From NCBI GenBank assembly GCA_015490805.1, contig WFXC01000034.1:24656-88655 (forward strand): a stretch of 64,000 nucleotides of DNA. Direction: 5' to 3'. The stretch comes from Candidatus Kapaibacterium sp. (GTDB lineage: Bacteria > Bacteroidota > Ignavibacteria > Kapaibacteriales > WFXC01). Position 1 is the stretch's first letter. Each line of letters begins with the position of its first letter. The notes under the pieces are model-generated. The model searched no databases, was not told the DNA's origin, and saw only the letters and a program-made list of their open reading frames with translations. Position numbers and translations under genes: made by a program. Shown piece after piece: positions 5,093-64,000 of the stretch.

Positions 5093-6034
5093 TTATTGCA
5101 AAGGTGTTTCTAAGAAACTAGAAGTTGGCAAGTATTCTACTAAGATACTGATACGGCGATTGCTGGAATCGAAGGGATTGTTAGGGTTTTTGAGCTTGCG
5201 ATCTGCATACCCGATCACGCTGGATACCTGTCCAGGCCATAAACCGTTTTCCTCCAGGAAGCGCCGAGCAGCATTGGCACGATCAGTGGATAGCTCCCAG
5301 TTCGTGTAGTTTTTGCCGGGGAATGGCCGGCTATCTGTATGCCCCTCAATTCGGATATGGTTGGGAAGTTTTCCTAATTCCTGCGCTAACATTCGCAAGA
5401 TCCGCTTTGCTTCGGGTGTCAGAGTTGCTTTCCCGACCTCGAAAAAGGCATTATTCTCTTTTTCGATTAACTCGATGCGAAGCCCTTCCTGGGTGATAGA
5501 GAGCTCAATATGCTTGAGGAGTTTCTGCAGGTTGGGACTTTGCTGGGCAACTTTTTGTAGAAGCTGGCGAAATTCTTTTTCTTTTGCTTTTAGTGCTTCA
5601 GCCGCTTTGGCACTGTCCTGGAGGGCAATAAAATATTTTTCCCGTTGCACACTGTCCAGACTCAATAACTTTTTGGGTAACTGGTTCGTGGTCTGTTCTG
5701 TAGGATCGTGGAAGTTGTCAATGAATTCTGGGTCATTTTTGTTAAAAATATACCGTGCTGGTTTCGCGTGGTCAATTCCCACAGGGAGAGCCTTGCCGGT
5801 GAGAAAACTAAAAGGTCCAGGTTCTCGAAAATATGCAGCAATATCCCGTTTTGCCGATTTGCTCAATCCCATAATCCACATTACCAAGAAGAACGCCATC
5901 ATTGCGGTAACAAAATCTGCATAGGCAACTTTCCACGCACCACCATGGTGCCCGTGCCCTGCTGTTTTCTTGATCTTCTTTATAACAACCGGCTCTTCCT
6001 GCTTCTGTTGCTGCTCTTCAGCCATCGAGCTCAA
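5093..6034 (-). CDS. motB: flagellar motor stator protein MotB (OmpA-like peptidoglycan-binding C-terminus)
   Basis: N-terminus 'GHGHHGGAWKVAYADFVTAMMAFFLVMW' is the canonical MotB plug/TM region. C-terminal OmpA-like 'GHTDSRPF...NWELSTDRANAARRFL'. Confidence 0.85.
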   Translation of the reverse strand: MSSMAEEQQQKQEEPVVIKKIKKTAGHGHHGGAWKVAYADFVTAMMAFFLVMWIMGLSKSAKRDIAAYFREPGPFSFLTGKALPVGIDHAKPARYIFNKNDPEFIDNFHDPTEQTTNQLPKKLLSLDSVQREKYFIALQDSAKAAEALKAKEKEFRQLLQKVAQQSPNLQKLLKHIELSITQEGLRIELIEKENNAFFEVGKATLTPEAKRILRMLAQELGKLPNHIRIEGHTDSRPFPGKNYTNWELSTDRANAARRFLEENGLWPGQVSSVIGYADRKLKNPNNPFDSSNRRISILVEYLPTSSFLETPLQ

Positions 6035-6886
6035 TTATCGTTGTTTAACGGTTTCTTCCATCTCCTGGAACGTTGGTCGATGGTCTGTTTCTATCGCTCG
6101 CCGGGCATATTCTACGGCAATTAATGGCGGCATGCCCTTGACAAAAGCTAAGATGCCGGCTTTCAGGACTTTTAAATATTCCATTCGTGCCGCGTTGCTG
6201 TGTTCGGTACTTTTTGCTATTGGGCCAACCATTCCGTATGAAAGAAGAATTCCCAGGAACGTACCAACCAATGCTGCTGCTACACTATGGCCGATAACAG
6301 CCGGTGGTTGGTCGATCTTTCCCATTGTAATAACTACTCCTAAGACAGCCGCAACGATCCCTAAGCCAGGGAAAGAGTCTGCCATAGTCGTAAGCGCAGA
6401 GGAGGGTTTTTCTTCTTCGTGATGCATGGTTTCCAGATCTAAGTCCATCAGGTCTTCCAGCTCGTTGGCTGGTACGCCACCATTTAGGACAACTTTGAAG
6501 GTATCAGCGACAAAACTAACGGCGTGGTGGTTTTTCAAAAAGAATTCATATTTCGTGAAAATGGAACTCCCTTCAGGGTTTTCGACGTGTGGTTCCAGTG
6601 CAATGAGTCCATCCTTCTTTGCCAACTGAAACAGTTCGTACAGCATCTTTAGCGTTTCCAGATACTGTTCCTTAGTAATTTTGAAGCCACCCTTGAGCGC
6701 TTCAATAGCCCCGCTGATCGCTTTTTTGACTACTGGCATTGGGTTTGCCAGCAAGAATCCTCCAAAGGCAGCTCCGCCAATAATAATGAATTCGTTGATC
6801 TGGAAGAGAATCGCAAAGTTTCCACCGTGGATAGCATATCCTAAGGCTACACAGGCAAATACGATGATTAAACCGACAATACCCAT
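6035..6886 (-). CDS. motA: flagellar motor stator protein MotA (MotA/TolQ/ExbB proton channel family)
   Basis: 283 aa with 4 TM segments. The start (MGIVGLIIVFA...GYAIHGG) and C-terminal TM3/4 region are typical MotA. The stop abuts the motB start. Confidence 0.85.
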   Translation of the reverse strand: MGIVGLIIVFACVALGYAIHGGNFAILFQINEFIIIGGAAFGGFLLANPMPVVKKAISGAIEALKGGFKITKEQYLETLKMLYELFQLAKKDGLIALEPHVENPEGSSIFTKYEFFLKNHHAVSFVADTFKVVLNGGVPANELEDLMDLDLETMHHEEEKPSSALTTMADSFPGLGIVAAVLGVVITMGKIDQPPAVIGHSVAAALVGTFLGILLSYGMVGPIAKSTEHSNAARMEYLKVLKAGILAFVKGMPPLIAVEYARRAIETDHRPTFQEMEETVKQR

Positions 6887-31461: not shown

Positions 31462-32616
31462 ATGCGGCATAAACTGGTGTTAGTAGGTCCAGCCTATCCA
31501 TATCGAGGGGGAAATGCTTTGTTTATGACGTCGGTGTACCAGATTTTAGCACCGAAATATGAGCTGGAATTTGTGAATTTTCGTGTCCTGTATCCCCAAT
31601 TGCTGTTCCCGGGAACGACGCAGTTTGATCAGTCGCAGTATCCCATTCCCAGGGTACCGAACCGGCGAGTTCTGCATTCCTATAATCCGCTCAACTGGAT
31701 GAAGGTGGGACGATTGATCGGTCATCTTGATCCAGATCTCATTTTGATGGATTGGTGGCATCCGTACTTTGGACCCTGCTACTGGGGCGTAACGACGGCG
31801 CTGCCTGGACCGTATCGACAAAGGGTGGTGATCATCACGGAGAATGTCATTTCGCACGAAGCAAATGCTGTGGATACGGTGTTAACCAGAATGGGATTGC
31901 GCCACGCACGCGCCTTCATCACGCTTTCCGAAGCTGTGCGGGATGCGCTGCAACCTTTTGCTGATCATCGTCCTATTTTCGTTGTGGGCCCTCCCATCCC
32001 GGATTTCTACTACAACATTGGCACCGTCCCGTCGCAGTCTGAGGCACGGCAGCATTTAGGGGTTCCATCTGATGCGGAGGTGCTGCTCTTTTTCGGCTAT
32101 GTGCGACGGTATAAAGGACTGGATGTGCTCATCGAAGCACTGGCAATTGCACGCCAGCGCCGACCCCGGTTGCGCCTTCTTGTCGCTGGTGAGTTTTATG
32201 AAGATGAACAAAAATATCGGGAGCAAATTGCGGCGCTGGGACTGGAGCTGTACGTGACGGTAGTTAATCAATACATTCCGAATGAGGCGGTCGGAATGTA
32301 CTACCGTGCCGCTGATGTTGTGGTTTTACCCTATCGGGAAGCAACGCAAAGCGGTATTTTAGCGACAGCCTACACGTTTCAGCGGCCAGTTATCGCCACC
32401 GCTGTTGGAGGACTCCAGGAACTGGTGGTAGAAGGCAAAACGGGACTTATCGTGCCACCGGAAGATCCCGCCGCACTGGCAGGAGCGATTGAGCAGTTTT
32501 TTGAAATCCGTACCTCCGTGGATTTTGATCGGCATATCCAGGAGTTCAAAGAGAAGCAAAATCCCTTTTTGCGGTTCCCTTCCATTGTTGCACAAATTCT
32601 TGAGGAAATAGAGTGA
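31462..32616 (+). CDS. glycosyltransferase family 4
   Basis: GT-B fold; 384 aa. Confidence 0.7.
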   Translation: MRHKLVLVGPAYPYRGGNALFMTSVYQILAPKYELEFVNFRVLYPQLLFPGTTQFDQSQYPIPRVPNRRVLHSYNPLNWMKVGRLIGHLDPDLILMDWWHPYFGPCYWGVTTALPGPYRQRVVIITENVISHEANAVDTVLTRMGLRHARAFITLSEAVRDALQPFADHRPIFVVGPPIPDFYYNIGTVPSQSEARQHLGVPSDAEVLLFFGYVRRYKGLDVLIEALAIARQRRPRLRLLVAGEFYEDEQKYREQIAALGLELYVTVVNQYIPNEAVGMYYRAADVVVLPYREATQSGILATAYTFQRPVIATAVGGLQELVVEGKTGLIVPPEDPAALAGAIEQFFEIRTSVDFDRHIQEFKEKQNPFLRFPSIVAQILEEIE

Positions 32617-34097
32617 AGCGGTTCCGGCAGACGACATCCGTTTATTTCATTGGGATCGGCGGTATTGCTATGAGCAGCGTGGCGGTTGCAATGCAGCATC
32701 AGGGATTTCGGGTTGGTGGTTCTGATCAGCAGATCTATCCACCAGCATCTGAACTGCTGGGCTCGACAGATGTCAAGCTGTATACGCCGTACTCGGAGCA
32801 CAATCTCCGGGATTTTGCTCCTGATCTGGTTGTCGTGGGTAACAGTGTGTCGCGGGGGAATCCGGAAGTGGAGTATGTGCTTTCCCACCGCTTGCCTTTT
32901 ATGTCGCTGCCGGAGCTGGTAAAGCGGGAAATCGTAGAGGGAGCGTTTTCGATCGTTGTGACGGGTACGCACGGGAAGACGACCACAACCGCTCTGATAG
33001 CGTGGATACTGGAGCGTGCAGGCTATGCTCCCGGCTTTTTAGTAGGTGGCATACCGGGCAATTTCTCCTCTGGTTTTCGCTATCCGCAGCGAACTGCTCT
33101 GGCTGATACACCCGTTGTGGTGCTGGAAGGGGATGAATACGACGCTGCCTTTTTCGATAAGCGCAGCAAATTTTTGCACTATTTGCCATCCGTTCTGGTG
33201 ATGAACAATCTGGAGTACGATCACGCCGACATTTTTCCCGATATGGCAGCACTCAAGCAGCAGTTTCGATGGTTACTCCGCCTGGTGCCTGCGGATGGGC
33301 TGCTGGTCGCTAATGGTGATGATGCCAACGTGATGGAGGTGCTGCGCACCGGTCCGGTGTATACTTCGAACATTCGCCGATTCAGTTTCAATGAACAGGG
33401 AGAGGTGCACATAACGATCCTTGAAACAACACCGCAGGGCAGTTTCTTTCAAATTCACGATCAGCAGAGCCGTACGGCACAGGAATTCTGGCTTCCCATA
33501 CCGGGAAGGCATATGGTATCGAATGCCGTTGCTGCCATTACTGCCGTCCAGCCACTTGCAATATCACATCAGGTACTGCAACACGCTCTGGAGACCTTTC
33601 GGCTGCCCCGCCGGCGTCTGGAGCGCAAAGTGACAGCAGGGGAGATAACTGTTTACGAGGATTTTGCTCACCATCCGACAGCGTTGCGAGCGACATTGCA
33701 GGCATTACGGCAGCAGCATCCTGAACAGCGACTGATCGCTGTAGTGGAACCCCGATCAAACACAATGGTACAGCGAATTTTTCAGCAGCCGATGGCAGAG
33801 GCATTACAGGGAGCCGACGTTGTGTTTTTTGCACCACCTTATCGCTATCAACGGTATGCACCGGAAGATCGGCTGGATATTGAACAATTAGCCAGGCAGT
33901 ATCGACAGCAGGGGAAGCAGGCAGAGGCGGTGCCACCGCAATGGTGGGATCGCCAGTGGAGCGACTGGTTACTGGAGAGACTGCAAAGTATAGTTGTCGC
34001 TGGTGATGTGGTGGTATTTTTCTCCAATGGTGCTTTCGATGGACTGGTGCAGAAATTTGTGGAACAACTGGAGCATTTAAAGCAGATCGATGAGTGA
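32613..34097 (+). CDS. mpl: UDP-N-acetylmuramate:L-alanyl-gamma-D-glutamyl-meso-diaminopimelate ligase (murein peptide ligase)
   Basis: 'YFIGIGGIAMSSVA' and 'GTHGKTTTT'. The 'EGDEYDAAFFDKRSKFLHY...NNLEYDHADIF' block is Mpl-type rather than MurC-type. Confidence 0.7.
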   Translation: MKRFRQTTSVYFIGIGGIAMSSVAVAMQHQGFRVGGSDQQIYPPASELLGSTDVKLYTPYSEHNLRDFAPDLVVVGNSVSRGNPEVEYVLSHRLPFMSLPELVKREIVEGAFSIVVTGTHGKTTTTALIAWILERAGYAPGFLVGGIPGNFSSGFRYPQRTALADTPVVVLEGDEYDAAFFDKRSKFLHYLPSVLVMNNLEYDHADIFPDMAALKQQFRWLLRLVPADGLLVANGDDANVMEVLRTGPVYTSNIRRFSFNEQGEVHITILETTPQGSFFQIHDQQSRTAQEFWLPIPGRHMVSNAVAAITAVQPLAISHQVLQHALETFRLPRRRLERKVTAGEITVYEDFAHHPTALRATLQALRQQHPEQRLIAVVEPRSNTMVQRIFQQPMAEALQGADVVFFAPPYRYQRYAPEDRLDIEQLARQYRQQGKQAEAVPPQWWDRQWSDWLLERLQSIVVAGDVVVFFSNGAFDGLVQKFVEQLEHLKQIDE

Positions 34098-34383
34098 GGA
34101 TCTACTCCAACTCCTGTGCCAACGCCGGGGTTTATCCTATGCTGCTGAACAGATGCGGGCTTTGCAGCAGTTTGTTATCTATATGGATCGCCATAGCTAT
34201 TGGTTGAACGATATTCTGGAACAGGATGGTCGTCGACTGTTCCGCTTCAGCGATGAAACCTCGCACATCGATTTGAGCGAGGAACAGATCTGGGCATTTA
34301 TACAGCAACTCCGGCAGGGAAAGCCGCTGCCGTGGGAGCAGTTGATTTTGGGAACAAAGCAGGGACATAAGTATGAAGAGTGA
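34090..34383 (+). CDS. hypothetical small protein (97 aa), translationally coupled between mpl and the DinG-like gene
   Basis: The ORF exactly fills the 275-bp gap, overlapping mpl by 8 bp and the downstream gene by 11 bp. No recognisable motif. Confidence 0.35.
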   Translation: MSEDLLQLLCQRRGLSYAAEQMRALQQFVIYMDRHSYWLNDILEQDGRRLFRFSDETSHIDLSEEQIWAFIQQLRQGKPLPWEQLILGTKQGHKYEE

Positions 34384-37093
34384 AACGCCGCTGCAATATC
34401 TTGGATCTTTTGTAGCGCTGGATTTTGAAACGACCGGGACAGATGTTGCAAACGATGCCATTATTGAAATTGGTGCATTGAAATATGAGAACGGCCACGA
34501 GGTGGATCGCTTTCATACACTGGTCAACCCGTTTATGCCGCTGCCACCCTACATTACGGAGTTGACAGGGATCACTGAAGAAGATCTGCAAGCTGCCCCG
34601 GCTTTTGCCCATATTATCGAGCCTTTCTGGCAGTTTATTGATGGTTATCCTTTGATGGCGCATAATGCCCGGTTTGAGCTCAAGTTTCTCCAGAAGTTTT
34701 TTGGCAGAGATTTTCAACCGCCGTTGCTGGACACCGTCCAACTATTTCAACTGCTTTTTCCAGAGCAGCATTCCCATTCGCTGGAACAGGTTGCTCGACA
34801 TCTTGGGCTTTCGTTGCCCGGCGGGCAGAGCCATCGCGCACTGGAAGATGCAACATTGATGGTGGAAGCGGTGCAACGCGCGATTCATCTGTTAATGCTG
34901 CCAGAACACCATCATCTGATTGCCACTATCGTGGCACTTCTCGAACGGCTGGATGGTACCCGATGGCAATGGCGGACGCTGTTTCAGAATCTGCATCAAG
35001 TGCTTGGATTGCCTGCTGCTTCGCTTGACCAGAACCCGCTGTATCATCCGGGACTTCCTGAGGAAGAGAATCGACAAAGGGAAAAAGGAGCACTGGATCC
35101 ACTCTTTTTCTATCTGCCCGTTGCTGTTCAGGACGTGCTGGCAGAGTGGATAGAGAGTGTTGTTGCTACCCCGGTGCATTTTGTTGAAACCAGTAAGCGA
35201 GCGCGGCGCGTGGGAGATTGGTTGGCACAGCAGAATGGGGAATCTCTTCTTATTGCCTCTGAACCTTCGTGGGAATGGCTGCTCAGCACACTGCTGGGAG
35301 CGCTTTCGTACGTGCAGGAGACCGGCAAAGCTGTATGTATCGTAGCACCCGGTGCCCAGAAGCGGGAGGATCTTGTGGAAATTGCTCACTCGTTGAAGCA
35401 GTATTTGCAGGCAGAAGAGTTGCAGATCGATCGAGTGTGGCAGCCAGTGCACTTTGTCTGTCCCCGTCGACTGCCAGCGCTGCTGGAAGGGTATTATCCG
35501 GAGGGTGATGATCCGGTTGCCTCGGAGTTTTTTGTCCGCCTCTTTTTAACCCTGTGGGGAATGCGGACAACAACGGGACGGGTGCAGGAATTACCGCCGC
35601 AATTACGCTCTCACGTCAAGATCAGTCAGTGGCTGGAAAAGCTGACTCACCACACAGAGGAATGTCTTCAGCAAAGCAGCCAGTGCTTCTATGGTCGATA
35701 TTATCAGACGGCACGGAACGCGCACCTGCTGTTTGCTGATTACGGCGCTCTGTTGAATGCGCAGCAGCCAGAACTGCAATTGCTGCCGTTGCTTCGCCCG
35801 GCGATAATCGGACTGGAAGCAGAAGTGCTGGAGGATCTGCTGATCGCACAGAATACCATCCGCATCCCACTCCACCAGGTGCTGTCGCTATTGCATCATC
35901 TGGAGGATCGGCTTACAGAGCAGGAGGCATTTCGGTCAGCACGGTATGCGGTGGAAGAACTGCTGGCAGAGCTGCGTCAGTCACAGCGGCAACAAATTGT
36001 AACCTATGTTCCACTGTCAGGGCACGAACAATCATCAGAATGGCTGGCGAAATTGCACGGTGTCGGGCAGCAACTGCAATTGGTTGTTGAGCAATTGAAC
36101 CGGCTCCCGGCGGACTTTCAGCAGGAGAGAGAGCGAATAACCACAGTGCTCCAGGAGTGGAGTCAATTGCTGGACCAGTTCAGCCGGGCGAATTACGTGA
36201 GCTATGGACAGTTGCATCGGGATGGCAACACTTTTTTGGTTTCCTCGCAATTGCAGCTTACAGATTCAGTGGAGCAATTGCTCTCTATATGGCAGAATGC
36301 TTCAACAGTTCTATTGAGTTCCTCATTGTTTTATCATCCCGAAGAGCGCCACCGTTTGAGCGAGCTTTTCTTTGGCACTACTGCTGTACCTTTTGTTGAT
36401 CTGCCACTGGAATCTGCACGACGGGGCAAGGTCATCTTTACGAAAGGACTGCCGCGATCATCCAGCGAATATTTCGGTGAGAAAATCGCTTTGATGCTCC
36501 ACAGATTGCTGCCGTTGCTACCAGCTAATGCCTGGATTGTTGCACACCAGCGGAACGTGCTGAGCCGGATCTACCAGTTGGTGCAGGAAATTTTGGGTGA
36601 TCGGCTGATATATTATGGCAAGACGCACCGCACGTTGACCGCACTACGGGAAGAGTTAGCACAGCGGGAAGATGCCGTTCTGCTTTCGCGGCCACTGGAT
36701 TTCCACGCTTTAGGTTATCGCTTTGGTCCATTCCGATGGATCATTTATGATCGGCTGCCATATATCATTCCAACCCCACGAACGCAGGCACTTCGCCAGC
36801 AGTGGCTGGATGCCGTAGAGGAATCAGGTGAGATGCCAGCGCTAAATGATTGGGAAGCAATTGAACAACCGATGATGTTTCGCAATTTCCGGAAATTATT
36901 CGATTTCGTCAGTTACGGCGTGCAGGATGCGTATACGGTTGCCGTGCTGGATCCAAACTTAAGCTCGACGACGCTCGCAAGCTATCACCGCCGAATGCTG
37001 GAATATGTGCCACACATTAAGCCCGTACTGGAACACTATGAACAAATCATCGCTGCTGCAACGGGTCCTGTTGCTGGCGTAGCACCTTCATAA
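34373..37093 (+). CDS. DinG-like protein: N-terminal DnaQ/DEDDh 3'-5' exonuclease domain fused to a helicase-like domain lacking Walker A and DEAH motifs
   Basis: Exo I 'ALDFETTG', Exo II 'AHNARFELKFL', Exo III 'HRALEDA'. C-terminal XPD/DinG-like motifs 'TVLLSSSLFY...FVDLP' and 'IIYDRLPYIIPTP'. No GxGKT anywhere in the 906 aa. Confidence 0.6.
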   Translation: MKSETPLQYLGSFVALDFETTGTDVANDAIIEIGALKYENGHEVDRFHTLVNPFMPLPPYITELTGITEEDLQAAPAFAHIIEPFWQFIDGYPLMAHNARFELKFLQKFFGRDFQPPLLDTVQLFQLLFPEQHSHSLEQVARHLGLSLPGGQSHRALEDATLMVEAVQRAIHLLMLPEHHHLIATIVALLERLDGTRWQWRTLFQNLHQVLGLPAASLDQNPLYHPGLPEEENRQREKGALDPLFFYLPVAVQDVLAEWIESVVATPVHFVETSKRARRVGDWLAQQNGESLLIASEPSWEWLLSTLLGALSYVQETGKAVCIVAPGAQKREDLVEIAHSLKQYLQAEELQIDRVWQPVHFVCPRRLPALLEGYYPEGDDPVASEFFVRLFLTLWGMRTTTGRVQELPPQLRSHVKISQWLEKLTHHTEECLQQSSQCFYGRYYQTARNAHLLFADYGALLNAQQPELQLLPLLRPAIIGLEAEVLEDLLIAQNTIRIPLHQVLSLLHHLEDRLTEQEAFRSARYAVEELLAELRQSQRQQIVTYVPLSGHEQSSEWLAKLHGVGQQLQLVVEQLNRLPADFQQERERITTVLQEWSQLLDQFSRANYVSYGQLHRDGNTFLVSSQLQLTDSVEQLLSIWQNASTVLLSSSLFYHPEERHRLSELFFGTTAVPFVDLPLESARRGKVIFTKGLPRSSSEYFGEKIALMLHRLLPLLPANAWIVAHQRNVLSRIYQLVQEILGDRLIYYGKTHRTLTALREELAQREDAVLLSRPLDFHALGYRFGPFRWIIYDRLPYIIPTPRTQALRQQWLDAVEESGEMPALNDWEAIEQPMMFRNFRKLFDFVSYGVQDAYTVAVLDPNLSSTTLASYHRRMLEYVPHIKPVLEHYEQIIAAATGPVAGVAPS

Positions 37094-37268
37094 AACGTCG
37101 ATGGTGCGAATTGTTAAAAAAATGACACTGCTGGCACTGCCTGTACAATACTTTGAAAAAGAAATTCGTTGTACGCTTTTGTAACCTTCTATGTGAAAAA
37201 TTTTTGGCGTGTCGCCCTCTTGATTTTTTATAACCGAATTGTTTAACAAATCGCGGGAGAACCAACAG

Positions 37269-37679
37269 ATGGCAAAACGAAAGAAAGCGGCTGAAGCAAC
37301 GGAGACAACCAGCGAAGCCACGAGTCAGGCAGAAAAGAAGCGCACTTATGCGAGCGAGTATTACCAGCGGAATCGTGAGCGGATCCTGGCATATCTCCGG
37401 AAGCGCTATCACGAAGATCCGGAGTATCGGGAAAAGGTAAAAAAGCGAGCGCTGGAACGGTATCACAACGATCCGGAGTATCGCCGGCGAACGATTGAGC
37501 GTGCCAAGCAGCGATATTACCGGATGCGGGAAGCGCTGATGATCCTGGAGCGTCAGCGGGCAGAAGAAGAAGCACGGAAGCAGAAGGAGCAAGAGGCGAA
37601 GAAAGCGGCAAAAAAGAGCGCAAAGTCCGCCAGTAGCACCAAGAAAACCAGCAGTTCAAAGAAGAAAAAGAAGAAGTAA
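37269..37679 (+). CDS. lysine/arginine-rich histone-H1-like (putative nucleoid-associated) protein with tandem YH-DPEYR repeats
   Basis: Start at 37269 behind a GGGAGAA RBS. 'YHEDPEYREKVKKRALERYHNDPEYRRRTIERAKQRYY' followed by a 'KKAAKKSAKSASSTKKTSSSKKKKKK' tail. The gene has its own AT-rich upstream region and terminator. Confidence 0.5.
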   Translation: MAKRKKAAEATETTSEATSQAEKKRTYASEYYQRNRERILAYLRKRYHEDPEYREKVKKRALERYHNDPEYRRRTIERAKQRYYRMREALMILERQRAEEEARKQKEQEAKKAAKKSAKSASSTKKTSSSKKKKKK

Positions 37680-37726
37680 CGACTCGGCAAGAAGAGCTTA
37701 GCAGACCAGAGGTGTGACTCAAGTGA

Positions 37727-37762
37727 GCGGGAAACTGCTGATAGCGGTTTCCCGCTTTTTTG
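37727..37762 (+). terminator. rho-independent terminator (stem AGCGGGAAAC/GTTTCCCGCT + T6)
   Basis: 10-bp GC-rich stem, 11-nt loop and a TTTTTTGTTG run, 48 nt after the stop of the basic protein gene. Confidence 0.6.
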
Positions 37763-37787: not shown

Positions 37788-38747
37788 TTGCCGGAAATGA
37801 CGCGTCGTAGCACTCCATCGCAGCGCAAGCAGTTTTCGTTTCGTTTATTTCAACGATGGAGCGCGGAAGCAAAAGCATTAGGGGGATTTTCTCTTGTTGT
37901 GCTGTTCCTTTTGGCACTTATTCTCATATCGCGCTTATGGGAAACGCTCTGGCTACTACCATTGTTCATCTCCGCCGGCGCTGGTATTTATCTGGGTTAC
38001 CGACAGAAGCTGCGGCTGCGGACGAAAAGTCTGAGTCTGGTTATGAAAGATATTCTTACCGGGAATATCGAAGGGCTTTACGGATTGATTGCTATGCTGG
38101 TGTTTTTGATCTTGACGTCGTGGGTTGCTGATGATCTGCACGATCACCAGTATAGTTATGCAGTGCTGTCGCTACTGGCAATCTGGATCCTGGGAATGCT
38201 CTTTATTGTCTGGTATCCGCTCGAATCCCAATCTCCGGAGAAGGTGCCACCTAAGGTACTGGTTATGGCGTTGTCGGCTTTTTCGGGAGATGTGGAGCAG
38301 TTTCGACAGTCGTTGACCCATCTTCACCAGCAAAAACTTCCTGGCAACTGGGAATTGCCGCTTCGAGCAGTGCTCTCTAAACCCGGTTTGGAACATGTTT
38401 TCTTTTTAAGCAGTAAGAAATCCTGGGATCAGCGTCAGGAGTTTGAAAAATTGCTGGACGAAGCTCTATTGTTGAATGGTCACGAAGCTACGTCGCTGAA
38501 CGTGCAAGATTTGCCCAGGAAGCCACAATTGCACTTTAAGGGTCCGGTGGATTTTGACAGTTTTCAAGATATCAAGCAAAATCTTTTGAAGATTCTGGAG
38601 GAAATTCACTCGACCCGTGGCCGACGCTACCGTGATGAGGAAATTATTGTGAACATCAGTGGTGGAACCTCCGCAGTGACCTTAGCATTGACGCTCAAAG
38701 TAGCCAAGAAGCGGCGTTATAAGCAGGATTGCTACAACACATTATAA
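37788..38747 (+). CDS. 4-TM membrane protein with cytoplasmic Rossmann-like domain carrying CARF/Card1-like motifs (putative ligand-sensing membrane effector)
   Basis: Four hydrophobic helices in residues ~30-150. The C-terminal domain begins 'KVLVMALSAFSGD' (strand 1 plus Ser loop) and carries 'EIIVNISGGTSAVTLAL', which resembles the Card1/Can1 CARF motif 'NIIVNITGGTKIMSLAAF'. Confidence 0.4.
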   Translation: MPEMTRRSTPSQRKQFSFRLFQRWSAEAKALGGFSLVVLFLLALILISRLWETLWLLPLFISAGAGIYLGYRQKLRLRTKSLSLVMKDILTGNIEGLYGLIAMLVFLILTSWVADDLHDHQYSYAVLSLLAIWILGMLFIVWYPLESQSPEKVPPKVLVMALSAFSGDVEQFRQSLTHLHQQKLPGNWELPLRAVLSKPGLEHVFFLSSKKSWDQRQEFEKLLDEALLLNGHEATSLNVQDLPRKPQLHFKGPVDFDSFQDIKQNLLKILEEIHSTRGRRYRDEEIIVNISGGTSAVTLALTLKVAKKRRYKQDCYNTL

Positions 38748-59448: not shown

Positions 59449-59469
59449 GGGTAACTTAACGATCGATCC
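59438..59469. terminator. hairpin spanning the stops of convergent GH57 and nhaC-like genes
   Basis: GTCGATCGGTAAG-GGTAA-CTTAACGATCGATC; 11-bp arms with 1 mismatch. Confidence 0.35.
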
Positions 59470-61333
59470 GATATTCCGGTACAGGTTTTCCAAGCAGGCG
59501 AACAACTCCCAGCAGTATGACTGTCGCAATGCCAAGTGCTATCCACCAGGGAATGCCCATAGCTGTTGGCAGTAAGCCGAAGAAGATGGCGACAACGCCT
59601 GCTAATAAGGCGTAGGGAAGCTGCGTTCGAACGTGCTCGATGTGATCACAGCCAGAAGCTAAGGAGGATAAAATAGTTGTGTCTGAAATCGGTGAGCAGT
59701 GATCTCCCCAGACCGATCCTGCTAAGACACTCCCGACTGTTGCGTAAAAAATGCTGAGCGCAGTTGAGGTTCCCGTTAAGTGATACGCTTCAAGCACTGA
59801 CCACGTGAGTGGAATAACCAGCGGCATCAAAATTGCCATCACCCCCCAACTGGATCCGGTGGCAAAAGAAGCGAAAGCAGCCAGTACGAAGACGGCTGTG
59901 GGAAGCCATATTGGTTCAATGGTATCGCTGAGCAGCGAGGTAAGATAAGTCGCAGTGTGCAGAGTATGGTTAACTTCCGCTAAGCCCCAGGCAAGTACCA
60001 GAATCACAACGGCAACCATCATCTGCTGCACTCCTGCCATCCACGCTTTCATCGACTGAGTAATGGAAAAGTTGCGGAGCAATACTCCCATTGCAATGGC
60101 GGCAATGCAGCCTGCTATTGATGCCCAGAGCATAGCCTGATAAGAATTTGCACTGCCCAGAATCTGAGAAAGGGTATCTCCTGAGCCGGTAGTGAGTAAT
60201 CCCCAAAAAAGAACGCCAAGCAGGACTGCCAGAGGAATCAAAGCACTTGAGGCATAGTGTTTGTGAGTACTCGCTGATGAGTGTGCTGCGGCGGTCTCTC
60301 GATCTCCCGGAGCATCATATGCAGCCTGCTCCGCCTGCTGCCGGGCTTTGATTTCTGCTTTCCACATTGGTCCAATGTCCCGTCGCAACAGGATGAGGAT
60401 GAAAAGGAGCACCAACGCCAGAATAGGATAAAAACGGTAGGCTAAAGAGGCGATGAAAATTTCGTATCCTGACTGGTGGATCTCCGGAATCTTTGCGACA
60501 GCGTCCTGAATGAGTCCAATTTCAAACCCAATCCAGGTTGTCATAATCATCAGGCTGGCGACCGGTGCTGAGGTGGAATCCACCAGATAGGCTAATTTCT
60601 CGCGAGAAATTCGCAGACGATCTGTGATGGGACGCATCACGTTCCCAATGACCAAGGCGTTAGCGTAGTCATCGAAGAAAAAGAGAATACCCAGAAAGGA
60701 AGTGGTCAATTGCCCAGAAGTGGCTGATCTTGCGAATCGCCGGAATCGCTCAACTAATCCATAGGCTCCCCCATTTTTGGTGATGATTCCTACAAATCCA
60801 CCGATGAGCAGTGTAAAGAGAAGGACGGCTGCGTGGTCACTGTTCCCACTGGGCGGAGCAATGGCGTGGAGCGTAAAGCGACTGACGACATCCAGGACAC
60901 CAAGCCAGATGCCCTCAAAGGAAAAGGCGTGGAGTAACCACGCTCCTAGCCAGATCCCCGCGAAAAGGGAAAGGATAACCTGTCGGGTTGCCAAAGCTAA
61001 TCCGATGGCGAGGAGTGCTGGGAGGGTAGTGGTCCATCCGGGGAGGGTTGTGGTTTTTTGGATTGCAATAACGTCATTAAAAAACCGCACTTCTACCTCC
61101 GTCACACCACTCTCATCCAGCAATACCTGCCACACTAAGGTATCTCCCTGCAATCGTTGTTCTGCCCGCTTTCCCCCGACCCATACCTGTATCTCTGCTC
61201 CCTGCGCTGCCGAATCCAGCTTTACCACGCCTTTCAAAGGAATCCGGGTAAAACTCACCGGCGGCACCTGCAACTGCGGTGCCGCCCATCCGTAGGCAGG
61301 ACAAAAAAGGAGCAGAATCAGCAATAGCGCCAT
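59456..61333 (-). CDS. Na+/H+ antiporter NhaC-family transporter with ~100-aa N-terminal periplasmic extension
   Basis: Signal peptide, then a soluble segment (LKGVVKLDSAAQGAEIQVWVGG...), then a ~500-aa polytopic NhaC-like core. Confidence 0.65.
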   Translation of the reverse strand: MALLLILLLFCPAYGWAAPQLQVPPVSFTRIPLKGVVKLDSAAQGAEIQVWVGGKRAEQRLQGDTLVWQVLLDESGVTEVEVRFFNDVIAIQKTTTLPGWTTTLPALLAIGLALATRQVILSLFAGIWLGAWLLHAFSFEGIWLGVLDVVSRFTLHAIAPPSGNSDHAAVLLFTLLIGGFVGIITKNGGAYGLVERFRRFARSATSGQLTTSFLGILFFFDDYANALVIGNVMRPITDRLRISREKLAYLVDSTSAPVASLMIMTTWIGFEIGLIQDAVAKIPEIHQSGYEIFIASLAYRFYPILALVLLFILILLRRDIGPMWKAEIKARQQAEQAAYDAPGDRETAAAHSSASTHKHYASSALIPLAVLLGVLFWGLLTTGSGDTLSQILGSANSYQAMLWASIAGCIAAIAMGVLLRNFSITQSMKAWMAGVQQMMVAVVILVLAWGLAEVNHTLHTATYLTSLLSDTIEPIWLPTAVFVLAAFASFATGSSWGVMAILMPLVIPLTWSVLEAYHLTGTSTALSIFYATVGSVLAGSVWGDHCSPISDTTILSSLASGCDHIEHVRTQLPYALLAGVVAIFFGLLPTAMGIPWWIALGIATVILLGVVRLLGKPVPEYRIDR

Positions 61334-61352
61334 TGATCTGTTAAGCTATCGC

Positions 61353-63500
61353 CTATTCCTTCACAACCAGTTGGGATCCCACCTTTTGATCTCCCTGCCA
61401 TACCTGAAACACATAGACGCCAGAAGGCAGGTTCGGTAGTGTTAAACGATAGCGGTGCGCACCATAAGGCAGAATTCCCAAAGAATGCGTCGCTACAGTT
61501 CGTCCCTGCACATCATTGATTACGACTCGTGTCTCACCAGAGCGATGCAACCAGAAATCCGCGATTACCTGGTTTCTAACCGGGTTCGGGAAAATCCGCA
61601 ATTGAGCGAAGAAATCCGGAACTTCCTCTACAGCGGTCACCACCAATTCGTAATCTGAATCTTTGCGGGGTACCAGTTTATAATTACCGAAGCTGTAATA
61701 CATAATCCCCCGGAGAAAGGAAAACTTCGACCCAATAGGCGGAATTATCCGATCCGGCATATCCTTGTATGTCGTTAGAGAAGTGTTCCCATCATCGGTT
61801 TCAACCCGCATCCACGCTCTTGGATCCTGAGCACGGTCTAAGTCGGCAACTAAAAATTCTCCAAAGTTCCGACCACGCGCTTTATCAGCATTCGTATCAA
61901 CCACGACCACATTCCGGAATTCTATCAGCATACTCTCCCATTGCTCCGCCGGCAATTCCCCCGCACTTTTCATAGCAAAATCAGCAGTCGATAACACCAC
62001 GGGCGTCACCTCATTGCCGGAAGACAAAACCTCCACATTTTCATCAATATTGGTCAGGATTGTCACGCGAAACATTTCATCCACTTCCCCTGTAACGCGG
62101 ATCCGATCCCCCCGATGGACCCCTCGCAGCGGATGGTCTGGATTGGTTGTGTAAAGAAAAATACCCGAATAAGGAGCAGTGGAATCCTGAATGTAGATGC
62201 GCGGATTATTACGCCCCGGAATATCAGAGGTATCTGCAGTCACGACGCCTTCCAGCGTTACAACAAATCCTTCATATGCTGAATAACCACCGGGTAAAAT
62301 TGGCTCCCGAACATCAGCAATCCGAGCCGGGCGGTCCAGCACCCGATAATAATGGTAACCATCGGGTGGATAGTTAAACTCGTAGCCACTGGTGTCGGCG
62401 ATATGGCAAAAATACTGGACTAAGGTTTCAGCACTTTGCGGAGGAATCATCCCCACAAAAGTAGAATCATCCACCTGTGTAGCAGCCACTGTATCAAAAG
62501 TACTTCCCCCATCAGTGCTGTAAATAATCCAGGCGGTTGCCGGATCCAAAGGAGCATCTCCAGGATAGGCAATAAACTGCACAGGAACACTATCGCTGGG
62601 AGCAGGAAAAGCCAGGGTTTTGGGTCTTCCGGCCGAGGTAATCTGCGGTGGCGTGATCGATATTTCAACGTCCTCAGGATACACTGGCGTAATCATAAAG
62701 GATGCCGGCTCTCCACCGATGCGAGCAGAAGTAATAAAACCGCGCACCCGAGAAAGCCGTTGCCCAATTTTGAATCCCTCCCATTCTCGCAATGCCGGTT
62801 TTCGACCGCCAATGTCCTCTTTTTTCGTGAAATATGTGGATTGCGTTCGTAAATACATCTGATTTCCTTCGGCATCGGCAATAACATAATCATAGCGAGT
62901 TGCTGCTACGACAGTTACATCCGTCAATTCGACCAGCATTCCGGCATACCGCGATCCACTTTCATAATGAACTGTCTGGTTTCCAATTGGTCCTGTATAA
63001 AAGTCCGAAATCTGAACGTGGACAGGCGTACCAACCGGACGATCAGAATCCAGAAACTCCACCTGATTACCATCGGCTGTAATAACTTCCAGTTGCGTCA
63101 GTCCCTGCGGTCCCGGTGGATAGTTTGCGACCCGGCATAAAACCCGGATAACGTCACCCGGTCGAATGCGATCAAAAAAGGTGGAAGTAATTGTCGTGTC
63201 AAACTGGAGAATGTTAACACCAGCGTACTCCTGCAAACCTTCGGTCGTATCATACAAGAAGGAAACCCATCGATTTCCTGCCCACAGAATGACGGTACGA
63301 TTGTTCAGCGGATCCACCACTGGCGGCACCATTACTTTTCCTGTCACATAGACGGTATCCCCAAAGTAGGCAGAACGCAAACTGCCCACCTGCAATGAAT
63401 CCTGCGGAATGGTCATCAGTTCGTGAATACTCACTTCCGGATAATCCTGTGCCCATAACAGCACCGGCAACACGAAGAGCGTCACAAATACTCGCTTCAT
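61353..63500 (-). CDS. large secreted hypothetical protein with T9SS-type C-terminal sorting domain
   Basis: Signal peptide MKRVFVTLFVLPVLLWAQD. The C-terminal ~85 aa ('RIFPNPVRNQ...GVYVFQVW...LVVKE') match the Por_Secre_tail pattern. 715 aa. Confidence 0.6.
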   Translation of the reverse strand: MKRVFVTLFVLPVLLWAQDYPEVSIHELMTIPQDSLQVGSLRSAYFGDTVYVTGKVMVPPVVDPLNNRTVILWAGNRWVSFLYDTTEGLQEYAGVNILQFDTTITSTFFDRIRPGDVIRVLCRVANYPPGPQGLTQLEVITADGNQVEFLDSDRPVGTPVHVQISDFYTGPIGNQTVHYESGSRYAGMLVELTDVTVVAATRYDYVIADAEGNQMYLRTQSTYFTKKEDIGGRKPALREWEGFKIGQRLSRVRGFITSARIGGEPASFMITPVYPEDVEISITPPQITSAGRPKTLAFPAPSDSVPVQFIAYPGDAPLDPATAWIIYSTDGGSTFDTVAATQVDDSTFVGMIPPQSAETLVQYFCHIADTSGYEFNYPPDGYHYYRVLDRPARIADVREPILPGGYSAYEGFVVTLEGVVTADTSDIPGRNNPRIYIQDSTAPYSGIFLYTTNPDHPLRGVHRGDRIRVTGEVDEMFRVTILTNIDENVEVLSSGNEVTPVVLSTADFAMKSAGELPAEQWESMLIEFRNVVVVDTNADKARGRNFGEFLVADLDRAQDPRAWMRVETDDGNTSLTTYKDMPDRIIPPIGSKFSFLRGIMYYSFGNYKLVPRKDSDYELVVTAVEEVPDFFAQLRIFPNPVRNQVIADFWLHRSGETRVVINDVQGRTVATHSLGILPYGAHRYRLTLPNLPSGVYVFQVWQGDQKVGSQLVVKE

Positions 63501-63548
63501 TTACTGTTTCCTCTCACGATTGTGAAACATCATTTTATCACCGTTGTT

Positions 63549-64000
63549 TCATTTCACGATCAAAAACTTCCCATACCGCCGTATACCGGTATCCAGATCT
63601 CGAACAACAACGAAATATAAGCCAGTTGCCAGTTCCAGATCCCCTTCTGTAATTAGATCCCAGCAATGGAGACTCCCTGCCATCTGGAGCGGAATTTCTG
63701 CTGTGATACCGATCTGGGTCAGCCATTCCCCCATATCTGCCTGCTGCAATCCTGCTTGATGTTCCAGCCGTTTCACAAGATCACCCGAAGGAGCATAAAT
63801 CAAAATCTCTGCTCGCTGCGGAAGATTATAGAAACACAGTCGCTTTGCTCGCGGTGAAGAAAAAGACCGATCCCAGACCGCGGACAGATAATAGGGATTT
63901 GGGAAAATTCCGATTTCTTCCACCGTATCCAGTGCCACCGGTGGTTGTCCCGGAATGATCAACACCTCCGTAGCCAGGGTACTGGATTCCAGCGATGGTA
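63549..64000 (-). CDS. 3' end of another secreted protein with T9SS/FlgD-Ig-like C-terminal sorting domain (5' part beyond window end)
   Basis: C-terminus '...GIFPNPYY...GLYFVVVRDLDTGIRRYGKFLIVK'. A sorting domain alone cannot be a complete protein, so the ORF must continue upstream. Confidence 0.5.
   Translation of the reverse strand, partial: PSLESSTLATEVLIIPGQPPVALDTVEEIGIFPNPYYLSAVWDRSFSSPRAKRLCFYNLPQRAEILIYAPSGDLVKRLEHQAGLQQADMGEWLTQIGITAEIPLQMAGSLHCWDLITEGDLELATGLYFVVVRDLDTGIRRYGKFLIVK

Follow-up and report, generated by a model that had tools for sequence, protein, structure and literature searches.

An exonuclease-DinG fusion protein from Kapaibacterium with an erased helicase ATPase site

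ExoDinG proteins join a DEDDh exonuclease to a helicase body of the XPD/DinG type. In the Firmicutes members from Staphylococcus aureus (SaDinG; crystal structures 8zef and 9ii8), Bacillus subtilis and Listeria monocytogenes, the parts follow the order exonuclease, motor domain 1 (MD1), iron-sulfur (Fe-S) or pseudo-Fe-S insertion, Arch and motor domain 2 (MD2), and the exonuclease is independent of ATP hydrolysis. The role of the helicase body in these fusions is disputed: SaDinG was at first described as a nuclease whose helicase is dead, and a 2025 description has helicase and nuclease coupled. We describe here an ExoDinG-type protein of 906 amino acids (aa) from Candidatus Kapaibacterium sp. 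(Bacteroidota), encoded in a 64,000-nucleotide stretch of contig WFXC01000034.1 (assembly GCA_015490805.1, positions 24,656 to 88,655). This whole stretch is called the window in what follows; its remaining genes are ordinary chromosomal housekeeping genes. The window protein has the same order of parts as the Firmicutes proteins, the same exonuclease catalytic residues and the K/R-L-P-F/Y motif through which MD2 contacts single-stranded DNA (ssDNA). The characterised Firmicutes ExoDinGs keep all motifs of superfamily 2 (SF2) and hydrolyse ATP, whereas the window protein has lost every ATP-contacting residue; and it has three Fe-S cysteines, where the Bacillales ExoDinGs have none or one.

DinG-like proteins have been sorted into ten subgroups, including ExoDinG, pExoDinG and sDinG, none of which has a live exonuclease together with an erased ATPase (PMC11981726). 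pExoDinG is the mirror image of the window protein, with a dead exonuclease and a live helicase; sDinG has neither the exonuclease nor the Fe-S domain and lacks conserved ATP-binding residues, and its ATPase is doubtful (PMC11981726). Both share with the window protein the superfamily and the condition of having one catalytic module degenerate while the fold is kept. We place the window protein as an exonuclease with a pseudo-helicase, a variant within ExoDinG and not a new kind of system. Motor-dead helicase folds kept as DNA-binding or recognition modules beside an active partner activity are also found in AddB, the pseudo-helicase subunit of AddAB, and in Deinococcus radiodurans PriA. AddB belongs to SF1 and PriA to another SF2 branch, their partner nucleases are different, and they share no homology in detail with the window protein; the likeness lies in working principle only.

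The first-pass annotation, made from the sequence letters and their open reading frames (ORFs), had read the gene as DinG-like, with a complete exonuclease head and erased helicase ATPase motifs. That central reading is right, judged by alignment and by the predicted fold. All the motif strings that it quoted are in the ORF: DFETTG (aa 17-22), HNARFE (97-102), HRALEDA (154-160), IASEPS (294-299), and towards the C-terminus VLLSSSLFY (646-654), FVDLP and IIYDRLPYIIPTP (790-802). It had likened the protein to a Staphylococcus DinG with an inactive helicase domain, a view of that enzyme that is now outdated: SaDinG has all its motifs and hydrolyses ATP (PMC3270479), and it unwinds DNA in the 5'-3' direction (PMC12345164). 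Since the SaDinG motor is intact and active, the window protein differs from it in kind, rather than being a plainer case of the same condition.

The motifs were compared in the window protein and two diverged orthologs, P0003 (40% identical) and L009:6106-8838 (910 aa, 59% identical, found through its neighbouring small ORF), the latter with the same replacements at every motif. At Walker A (motif I) the canonical G-G-K-S/T has become S299, E301, W302 and L303; L009 is identical to the query and P0003 has D, E, F and L. Three independent alignments, by MAFFT and by profile-profile comparison (hhalign), agree in setting ASEPSWEWL against EAGTGxGK(S/T)L. The string IASEPS, which had been assigned to the DEAH-box position, therefore sits at Walker A, and the DEAH position reads G-LEAE. 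Here the Mg-binding Asp of Walker B is replaced by L481, with E482 and A483 kept (IEAE in L009, LEAD in P0003). In motif VI, Q-G-R-R has given way to K841, D844, F845 and Y848 in 3/3 orthologs. Motifs Ia, III (SAT to SSS), IV (LFTS to VAHQ) and V (FWEGVDIPG to DFHALGYRF) are replaced as well, so that the loss first proposed for motifs I and II is borne out by the alignments and reaches Ia, III, IV, V and VI. Across motifs I, II and VI, all residues that contact ATP are replaced in the three orthologs.

The helicase-like region might be a decaying relic or incipient pseudogene, or its motif loss a product of misassembly or a frameshift. In favour of such an origin, Pfam no longer finds DEAD_2 or Helicase_C_2 in the protein, and one metagenome contig is broken in frame in the Arch region. 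Against it, no interruption breaks the reading frame, which runs collinear with canonical DinG across all the motifs. The P-loop patterns G.GK[ST] and [AG]xxxxGK[ST] have no match in the protein or in the other frames of the gene, in agreement with the original claim that a Walker A is absent; the single match within the gene and 300 nt to either side is flanked by stops and lies downstream of the stop codon. Five independent, near-identical assemblies (L002, L004, L005, L008 and L010; four of them besides the broken contig) show the erasure unchanged, and it recurs in L009 and P0003. Because of this agreement the pattern is neither chance nor sequencing error. A frameshift or hidden P-loop is ruled out by the collinear frame, the identical assemblies and the lack of a P-loop in any frame, and pseudogene decay by the conservation among orthologs and by a ratio of nonsynonymous to synonymous substitution rates (dN/dS) of ~0.08 over the helicase-like region. 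We regard decay or artefact as effectively refuted.

The broken contig is L008 (JGI Ga0062600_1004031), a metagenome contig 87% identical to the window, in which the dinG-like frame is interrupted at about 2955-2972, removing aa 566-593. Since the portion past the break is still under purifying selection, this is likely an assembly error or a very recent lesion.

Domain databases give little hint of the ancestry. Pfam reports RNase_T only (aa 14-165, 3e-30), with no helicase domain at E <= 0.1. The nearest NCBIfam model, dinG_rel (TIGR01407), scores 161.2 bits against a cut-off of 547.7, and PRK08074 scores 139.1 against 789; the model for the DinG paralog YoaA matches aa 393-802 at 2.7e-13. 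Among PDB sequences the exonuclease domain matches the PolC exonuclease (2p1j, 9e-30) and SaDinG (8zef, 8.5e-22). Automated annotation, which sees just RNase_T in such proteins, overlooks the DinG descent. A profile of the C-terminal 707 aa (query plus P0003) was aligned by hhalign with a profile of 13 canonical ExoDinGs, giving a probability of 99.9% and E 1.2e-33 over 597 columns. This comparison with the DinG/XPD family had been named beforehand as a check, and it confirms both the helicase fold and the loss of motifs I and II. An AlphaFold2 model of the full protein (predicted local distance difference test, pLDDT, 85.8; predicted template modelling score, pTM, 0.86) was searched with Foldseek. 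The top matches are the S. aureus ExoDinG crystal structures 8zef and 9ii8, full length, at E 4e-34 and template modelling (TM) scores of 0.62-0.66; E. coli DinG, XPD from archaea and eukaryotes, and CasDinG come next. The four-domain XPD/DinG body (MD1, Fe-S or pseudo-Fe-S insertion, Arch, MD2) is present. The fold result is partly dependent on the sequence result, and the two concur. A non-helicase fold for the C-terminal region is ruled out by hhalign and Foldseek; of the two outcomes that the first-pass annotation had named as able to overturn it, this and a P-loop restored by correcting a frameshift, neither was found.

By descent and by predicted fold, then, the window protein is an ExoDinG; judged as a helicase, on the ATPase motifs that define one and on the curated cut-offs, it falls outside the group. 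The helicase fold, the lost catalytic ATPase residues and continued selection together mark it as a putative pseudo-helicase, with absence of ATPase activity predicted from the residues.

The Kapaibacterium-type lineage is small. A scan of GTDB genomes found the gene in two Kapaibacterium metagenome-assembled genomes only, at 96-97% amino-acid identity. When the C-terminal profile was run with HMMER in an exhaustive search against 1.84 billion representative proteins, 19 hits came back at E <= 1e-3; of these, the P0003 cluster and the query's own (P0002) cluster are the family and the other 17 are distant. A metagenome scan added one fragment, L010; most of the other 79 loci kept from it matched through the exonuclease domain only, and the 16 metagenome loci that were inspected comprised four intact ExoDinGs of 960 aa and otherwise short or truncated exonuclease-domain ORFs. 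The profile, GTDB genome and metagenome scans found no intermediate with partly intact motifs in this lineage. The nearest outgroup is a set of four uncultured proteins, P0121-P0124 (933-981 aa), with intact GTGKT, DEAD, SAT, LFTS, WKGVDIPG and QxFGRLIR and the full set of four Fe-S cysteines; they are recognised by the Pfam models DEAD and Helicase_C_2. They share with the Kapaibacterium-type proteins the markers ALDFETTG, HNAxFE, a PYxxPxP(Y/R)T insertion after motif Va, W827, MFxxFR and LDPxL. Because this outgroup has the lineage markers and yet keeps intact motifs, the ATPase-dead state is derived from ATPase-competent ExoDinGs.

Identities were compared domain by domain between the lineage (query and P0003) and these four sisters. 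In the exonuclease domain the lineage is 45.5% identical to the sisters, against 51.3% among the sisters themselves. The corresponding figures are 12.3% against 57.4% for MD1 around motifs I-Ia, and 21.1% against 51.6% for MD2. Within the lineage, the query and P0003 are 51.2% identical in MD2, 42.7% in the Fe-S domain (at least as high as the 39.2% among the intact sisters), 26-27% in MD1 and 17% in Arch, the least conserved part of the protein. By the Nei-Gojobori method, against strains at 95% and 87% nucleotide identity, dN/dS is 0.09 for the whole gene, ~0.08 for aa 271-906, 0.05-0.06 for MD2 and 0.10-0.13 for Arch, and is lowest in the exonuclease domain (0.03-0.06). Purifying selection acts on the pseudo-helicase, with its greatest strength in the MD2-like lobe and Fe-S domain. 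On these identities and the low dN/dS, the helicase body changed fast on one branch and then came under strong constraint in its new state, a signature of a change of function and not of decay.

The exonuclease head is complete in its catalytic positions, as had been claimed: D17, E19, H97, E102, H154 and D159 align with SaDinG D10, E12, H90, D95, H149 and D154. The SaDinG sequence was rebuilt from an alignment, and its numbering was verified against 18 residues named in the structural paper. The Glu in place of the usual Asp as third acidic residue (ExoII, E102) was correctly noticed in the first pass and is not peculiar to this protein. HNAxFE is found in relatives with intact helicase motifs (P0121-P0124, P0128, P0017 and L011), so the change is best taken as a subfamily trait that lies outside the degeneration. 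A subset of ExoDinGs, including L011-L014 and ATPase-intact members, is of this DEEDh type.

The substitution might nevertheless mean that the whole protein is catalytically dead, exonuclease included, and acts by binding alone. We think this improbable. A carboxylate is preserved at E102, relatives with a complete set of helicase motifs have the same Glu, the remaining catalytic residues are invariant, and the exonuclease domain has the lowest dN/dS of the protein. The D-E-E-D-h arrangement is also catalytically active in the coronavirus nsp14 ExoN.

Loss of ATP hydrolysis is compatible with nuclease function in characterised ExoDinGs. Listeria DinG, an RNase in rRNA quality control, can do without its ATPase motif in vitro, and its DEAH-box mutant E465A retains prominent exonuclease activity (PMC12774634). 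In SaDinG, the Walker A substitution K304A raises the activity and speed of the exonuclease and lessens its inhibition by ATP (PMC3270479).

The altered body was also compared at the Fe-S domain and at the residues that contact ssDNA. The protein has four cysteines in total, and C363, C431 and C438 occupy Fe-S ligand positions and do not vary among the orthologs; a deletion has removed the third canonical ligand, and H427 nearby is invariant. Three or four cysteines are scored as an Fe-S domain in the review of DinG-like proteins (PMC11981726). In SaDinG, mutagenesis identified K801, F804, F823, R858 and Y864 as MD2 residues that bind ssDNA, with K801 and F804 essential for DNA binding (PMC12345164). 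Three of these five are conserved in kind (R794, Y797 and W827 for K801, F804 and F823). The other two, R858 and Y864, are N862 and H872, positions where the intact sister clade has Q and H. Motif Va (RLPY..P) and the aromatic residues W827 and Y871 are retained.

On this evidence we favour a working 3'-5' exonuclease head joined to an ATP-incapable helicase body that selection keeps as a passive nucleic-acid-binding scaffold, to which we give a probability of roughly two in three. The N-terminal domain would degrade ssDNA, RNA or both from the 3' end without nucleotide control; the body would no longer bind or hydrolyse ATP, and the dead motor would hold or select the substrate strand rather than translocate along it. 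The scaffold probably carries a metal cluster. Since Listeria E465A and SaDinG K304A keep their exonuclease, the natural variant would be a constitutive nuclease freed of nucleotide control. Candidate substrates would be DNA in R-loops or flaps, or the substrate of Listeria DinG, unprocessed rRNA.

Several points weigh against this reading. One of the four Fe-S ligands is deleted, and the ExoII metal ligand is Glu and not Asp, though the change is conservative and common to intact relatives. The MD1 lysines that contact DNA in SaDinG, K336 and K338, are W356 and P358 here, and the path of ssDNA through the body may therefore be interrupted. The alignment behind the AlphaFold model is dominated by canonical DinGs, which biases the model towards a DinG fold; the exhaustive search used a profile built from two sequences only; and the dN/dS values come from closely related strains by a simple count.

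The loss of the MD1 contacts is also the starting point of the main rival reading, in which the body is kept mainly as a docking or regulatory platform for proteins, with orf97 (a 97-aa ORF that overlaps the dinG-like start codon), the small basic protein encoded downstream, SSB, the replisome or the ribosome as possible partners. MD2 has been fixed anew as a lineage-specific surface (51% identity within the lineage, 21% to the intact sisters), the gene has a small conserved ORF on either side, and the DinG relative YoaA acts through a partner, HolC (PMC11981726). We nonetheless hold a docking role to be unlikely, at perhaps one chance in several. The P0003 locus shows the same motif erasure without orf97, orf97 has no recognisable fold relatives, and MD2 retains residues that contact ssDNA in SaDinG.

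A further alternative is that non-canonical residues in the remodelled cleft still hold a nucleotide or some other small ligand, in which case the body would be an allosteric sensor for the exonuclease. Constraint on the site is evident, as the replacement residues E297, P298, W300, E301 and L303 are invariant across the three orthologs; E482 and A483 of motif II are retained; and in SaDinG the binding of ATP or ADP modulates the nuclease (PMC3270479). Yet the P-loop glycines, Lys and Ser/Thr, the Walker B Asp, and the Gln and arginines of motif VI have been exchanged for bulky or acidic residues, and no motor region is less conserved than the surrounding MD1, where the most distant orthologs are 27% identical. 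Such a ligand site seems to us a slim prospect.

The passive scaffold proposed for the window protein may have parallels. Among ~45 ExoDinG-like sequences, the lineage P0005/P0009/P0012 keeps DEDDh and has lost motifs I, Ia, II, III, V and VI, and P0075, P0136 and P0066 keep DEDDh with partly eroded ATPase motifs. Because all of these still score on Pfam Helicase_C_2, the Kapaibacterium-type proteins are the most eroded. A neighbour-joining tree with 100 bootstraps was restricted to the exonuclease domain, a part that the erosion leaves untouched. The Kapaibacterium-type clade was recovered in 100/100 replicates and its grouping with P0121-P0124 in 69/100. P0005/P0009/P0012 formed a clade in 100/100, beside the intact P0006. 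The two dead clades were joined in 0/100 and all dead forms were monophyletic in 0/100. Since the tree never joins the dead forms, ATPase loss occurred independently at least twice, and probably more often.

The eroded lineages and the window protein differ in gene context. P0012 has 26 cluster members, on contigs of 2.5-2.9 Mb; at its locus L003:8001-10574, ruvC and ruvA lie a few genes upstream and a DinB_2 gene two genes downstream.

Independent erosion across several ExoDinG lineages suggests a general pattern. We tentatively suggest, as a possibility with the odds somewhat against it, that ATPase-dead ExoDinGs are a recurrent, functionally distinct class in which an XPD-like shell, possibly with a 3Cys(+His) iron-sulfur cluster in the Kapaibacterium type, serves as an ATP-independent, substrate-selecting clamp for a DEDDh exonuclease, and that the class evolved several times from motor-competent ancestors. 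If so, the ancestral and principal job of the ExoDinG helicase body would be capture of substrates such as unprocessed rRNA 3' ends or R-loop and flap strands, and not unwinding. The Kapaibacterium lineage offers a natural separation-of-function variant for the dispute over that body: with the body under strong purifying selection, it indicates that an XPD-like scaffold can have a selectable ATP-independent role, for which strand binding, substrate choice and a metal-cluster function without motor activity are candidates.

Table 1. Coordinates in the window of the ExoDinG-type gene, its domains and motifs, and the neighbouring features of the same-strand run
Feature	Position	Strand	Basis or remark
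ExoDinG-type protein gene, ATPase site erased (exonuclease + pseudo-helicase)	34373..37093	+	ATG start, 906 aa, uninterrupted ORF
DEDDh (DnaQ/RNase T-type) 3'-5' exonuclease domain, aa 12-170	34406..34882	+	Pfam RNase_T 3e-30
Exo I, catalytic D17-x-E19	34421..34429	+	Aligned with SaDinG D10/E12; invariant across homologs
Exo II, H97...E102, DEEDh arrangement	34661..34678	+	Aligned with SaDinG H90/D95
Exo III, H154...D159	34832..34849	+	Aligned with SaDinG H149/D154; invariant
Motif I (Walker A) remnant, ASEPSWEWLL vs EAGTGxGK(S/T)LA	35255..35284	+	MAFFT and hhalign concur
Motif Ia remnant, VAPGAQKREDL vs STxTxxLQxQL	35342..35374	+	Alignment, including hhalign
Fe-S-type domain, aa 361-450	35453..35722	+	C363, C431, C438 kept; third canonical Cys deleted
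Motif II (Walker B/DEAH) remnant, G-LEAE, aa 480-484	35810..35824	+	Alignment; Asp to L481
Arch-like helical insertion, ~aa 501-640	35873..36292	+	Helical in AlphaFold model
Motor-domain-2 (MD2)-like lobe, aa 641-895	36293..37057	+	Conserved in lineage, motor motifs lost
Motif V remnant, LDFHALGYRF vs SFWEGVDIPG	36695..36724	+	Alignment
Motif Va retained (YDRLPYIIPTPRT), including R794 and Y797	36746..36784	+	Residue mapping onto SaDinG
Motif VI remnant, FRNFRKLFDFVSY vs FRQGFGRLIRxxx, both arginines gone	36878..36916	+	Alignment
Group-1 glycosyltransferase, first gene of same-strand run	31462..32616	+	Pfam; same position in L001, L002, L009
mpl (UDP-N-acetylmuramate:L-Ala-gamma-D-Glu-meso-DAP ligase)	32613..34097	+	TIGR01081 394.5 bits > cut-off 388.7
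orf97, 97-aa orphan ORF	34090..34383	+	Overlaps mpl stop and dinG-like start
Small Lys/Arg/Glu-rich basic ORF, 146 aa, repeated RYHxDPEYR	37239..37679	+	Directly downstream of dinG-like gene
Terminator-like hairpin, 15-bp stem and T tract, closing same-strand run	37725..37757	+	Consensus scan only

Around the gene (Table 1), the start and stop overlaps behind the coupling described in the first pass are real: the mpl stop (34095-34097) lies beyond the orf97 start (34090) and the orf97 stop (34381-34383) beyond the dinG-like start (34373), and the glycosyltransferase ORF runs over the mpl start in the same way. The mpl product contains Mur_ligase, Mur_ligase_M and Mur_ligase_C, and an ortholog 47% identical stands at the same position in L001, the P0003 locus. 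The layout phoH (opposite strand), glycosyltransferase, mpl, dinG-like gene and small basic ORF occurs in three genomes. At least 4-6 flanking genes of the other strand recur too (phoH, cdaA, PCMT and miaA in 3/3, an S13 peptidase gene in 2/3), and because they do, adjacency to mpl is general synteny of the related group. The proposed survey of the order mpl, small ORF, dinG-like thus showed recurrence, with orf97 missing from the P0003 locus and with the flanks recurring as well. The suggestion that mpl is a meaningful operon partner fares poorly: functional coupling is unsupported, since a wider syntenic block is conserved, the ATPase-intact sister genes do not adjoin mpl, and orf97 is absent from the most diverged locus. 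In L008, similarity to the window starts only at the extreme end of mpl, and the stretch upstream of position 935 carries a tRNA-synthetase fragment.

orf97 is a real, constrained gene, with a dN/dS of 0.11 (against L008) and a 64% identical ortholog in L009, a second genus-level lineage, at 5823-6119, where it again overlaps both neighbours. Because the P0003 locus has the same erasure without it, orf97 is not required for the ATPase-dead state. It matches no Pfam or NCBIfam family and has no database relatives outside its own cluster. A single-sequence AlphaFold model (pLDDT 81.7) gives the order helix-helix-three strands-helix, with no significant fold match in the PDB.

The small basic ORF lies just downstream of the dinG-like gene in the window, in L001 (12808-13107) and in L009 (9001-9357). 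Its repeat is RYH(E/N)DPEYR(E/R)K and its dN/dS 0.03, and it is 87% identical to its L001 counterpart, against 40% for the DinG-like protein and 47% for Mpl. It has no Pfam or NCBIfam assignment and seven database relatives only, including two fusions with a GNAT acetyltransferase domain (PF13302). A sigma-70 promoter scan gave six sites where seven are expected, the consensus being uninformative for a Bacteroidota-type organism.

Beyond the terminator-like hairpin, an ORF of 319 aa (37788-38747, +) carries membrane-like segments at its N-terminus and, in its C-terminal part, weakly resembles CARF domains (Csm6 CARF 0.003, Card1 CARF 0.05). It lies in the most variable stretch of the locus, with 72-78% amino-acid identity between strains where its neighbours have at least 95%, and a dN/dS of 0.27. 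GC skew is positive over the first 60 kb of the window and negative in the last 4 kb (60001-64000). The switch coincides with two long genes on the minus strand (59456-61333 and 61353-63500) and is therefore probably due to the way the genes are oriented there, rather than to a replication landmark.

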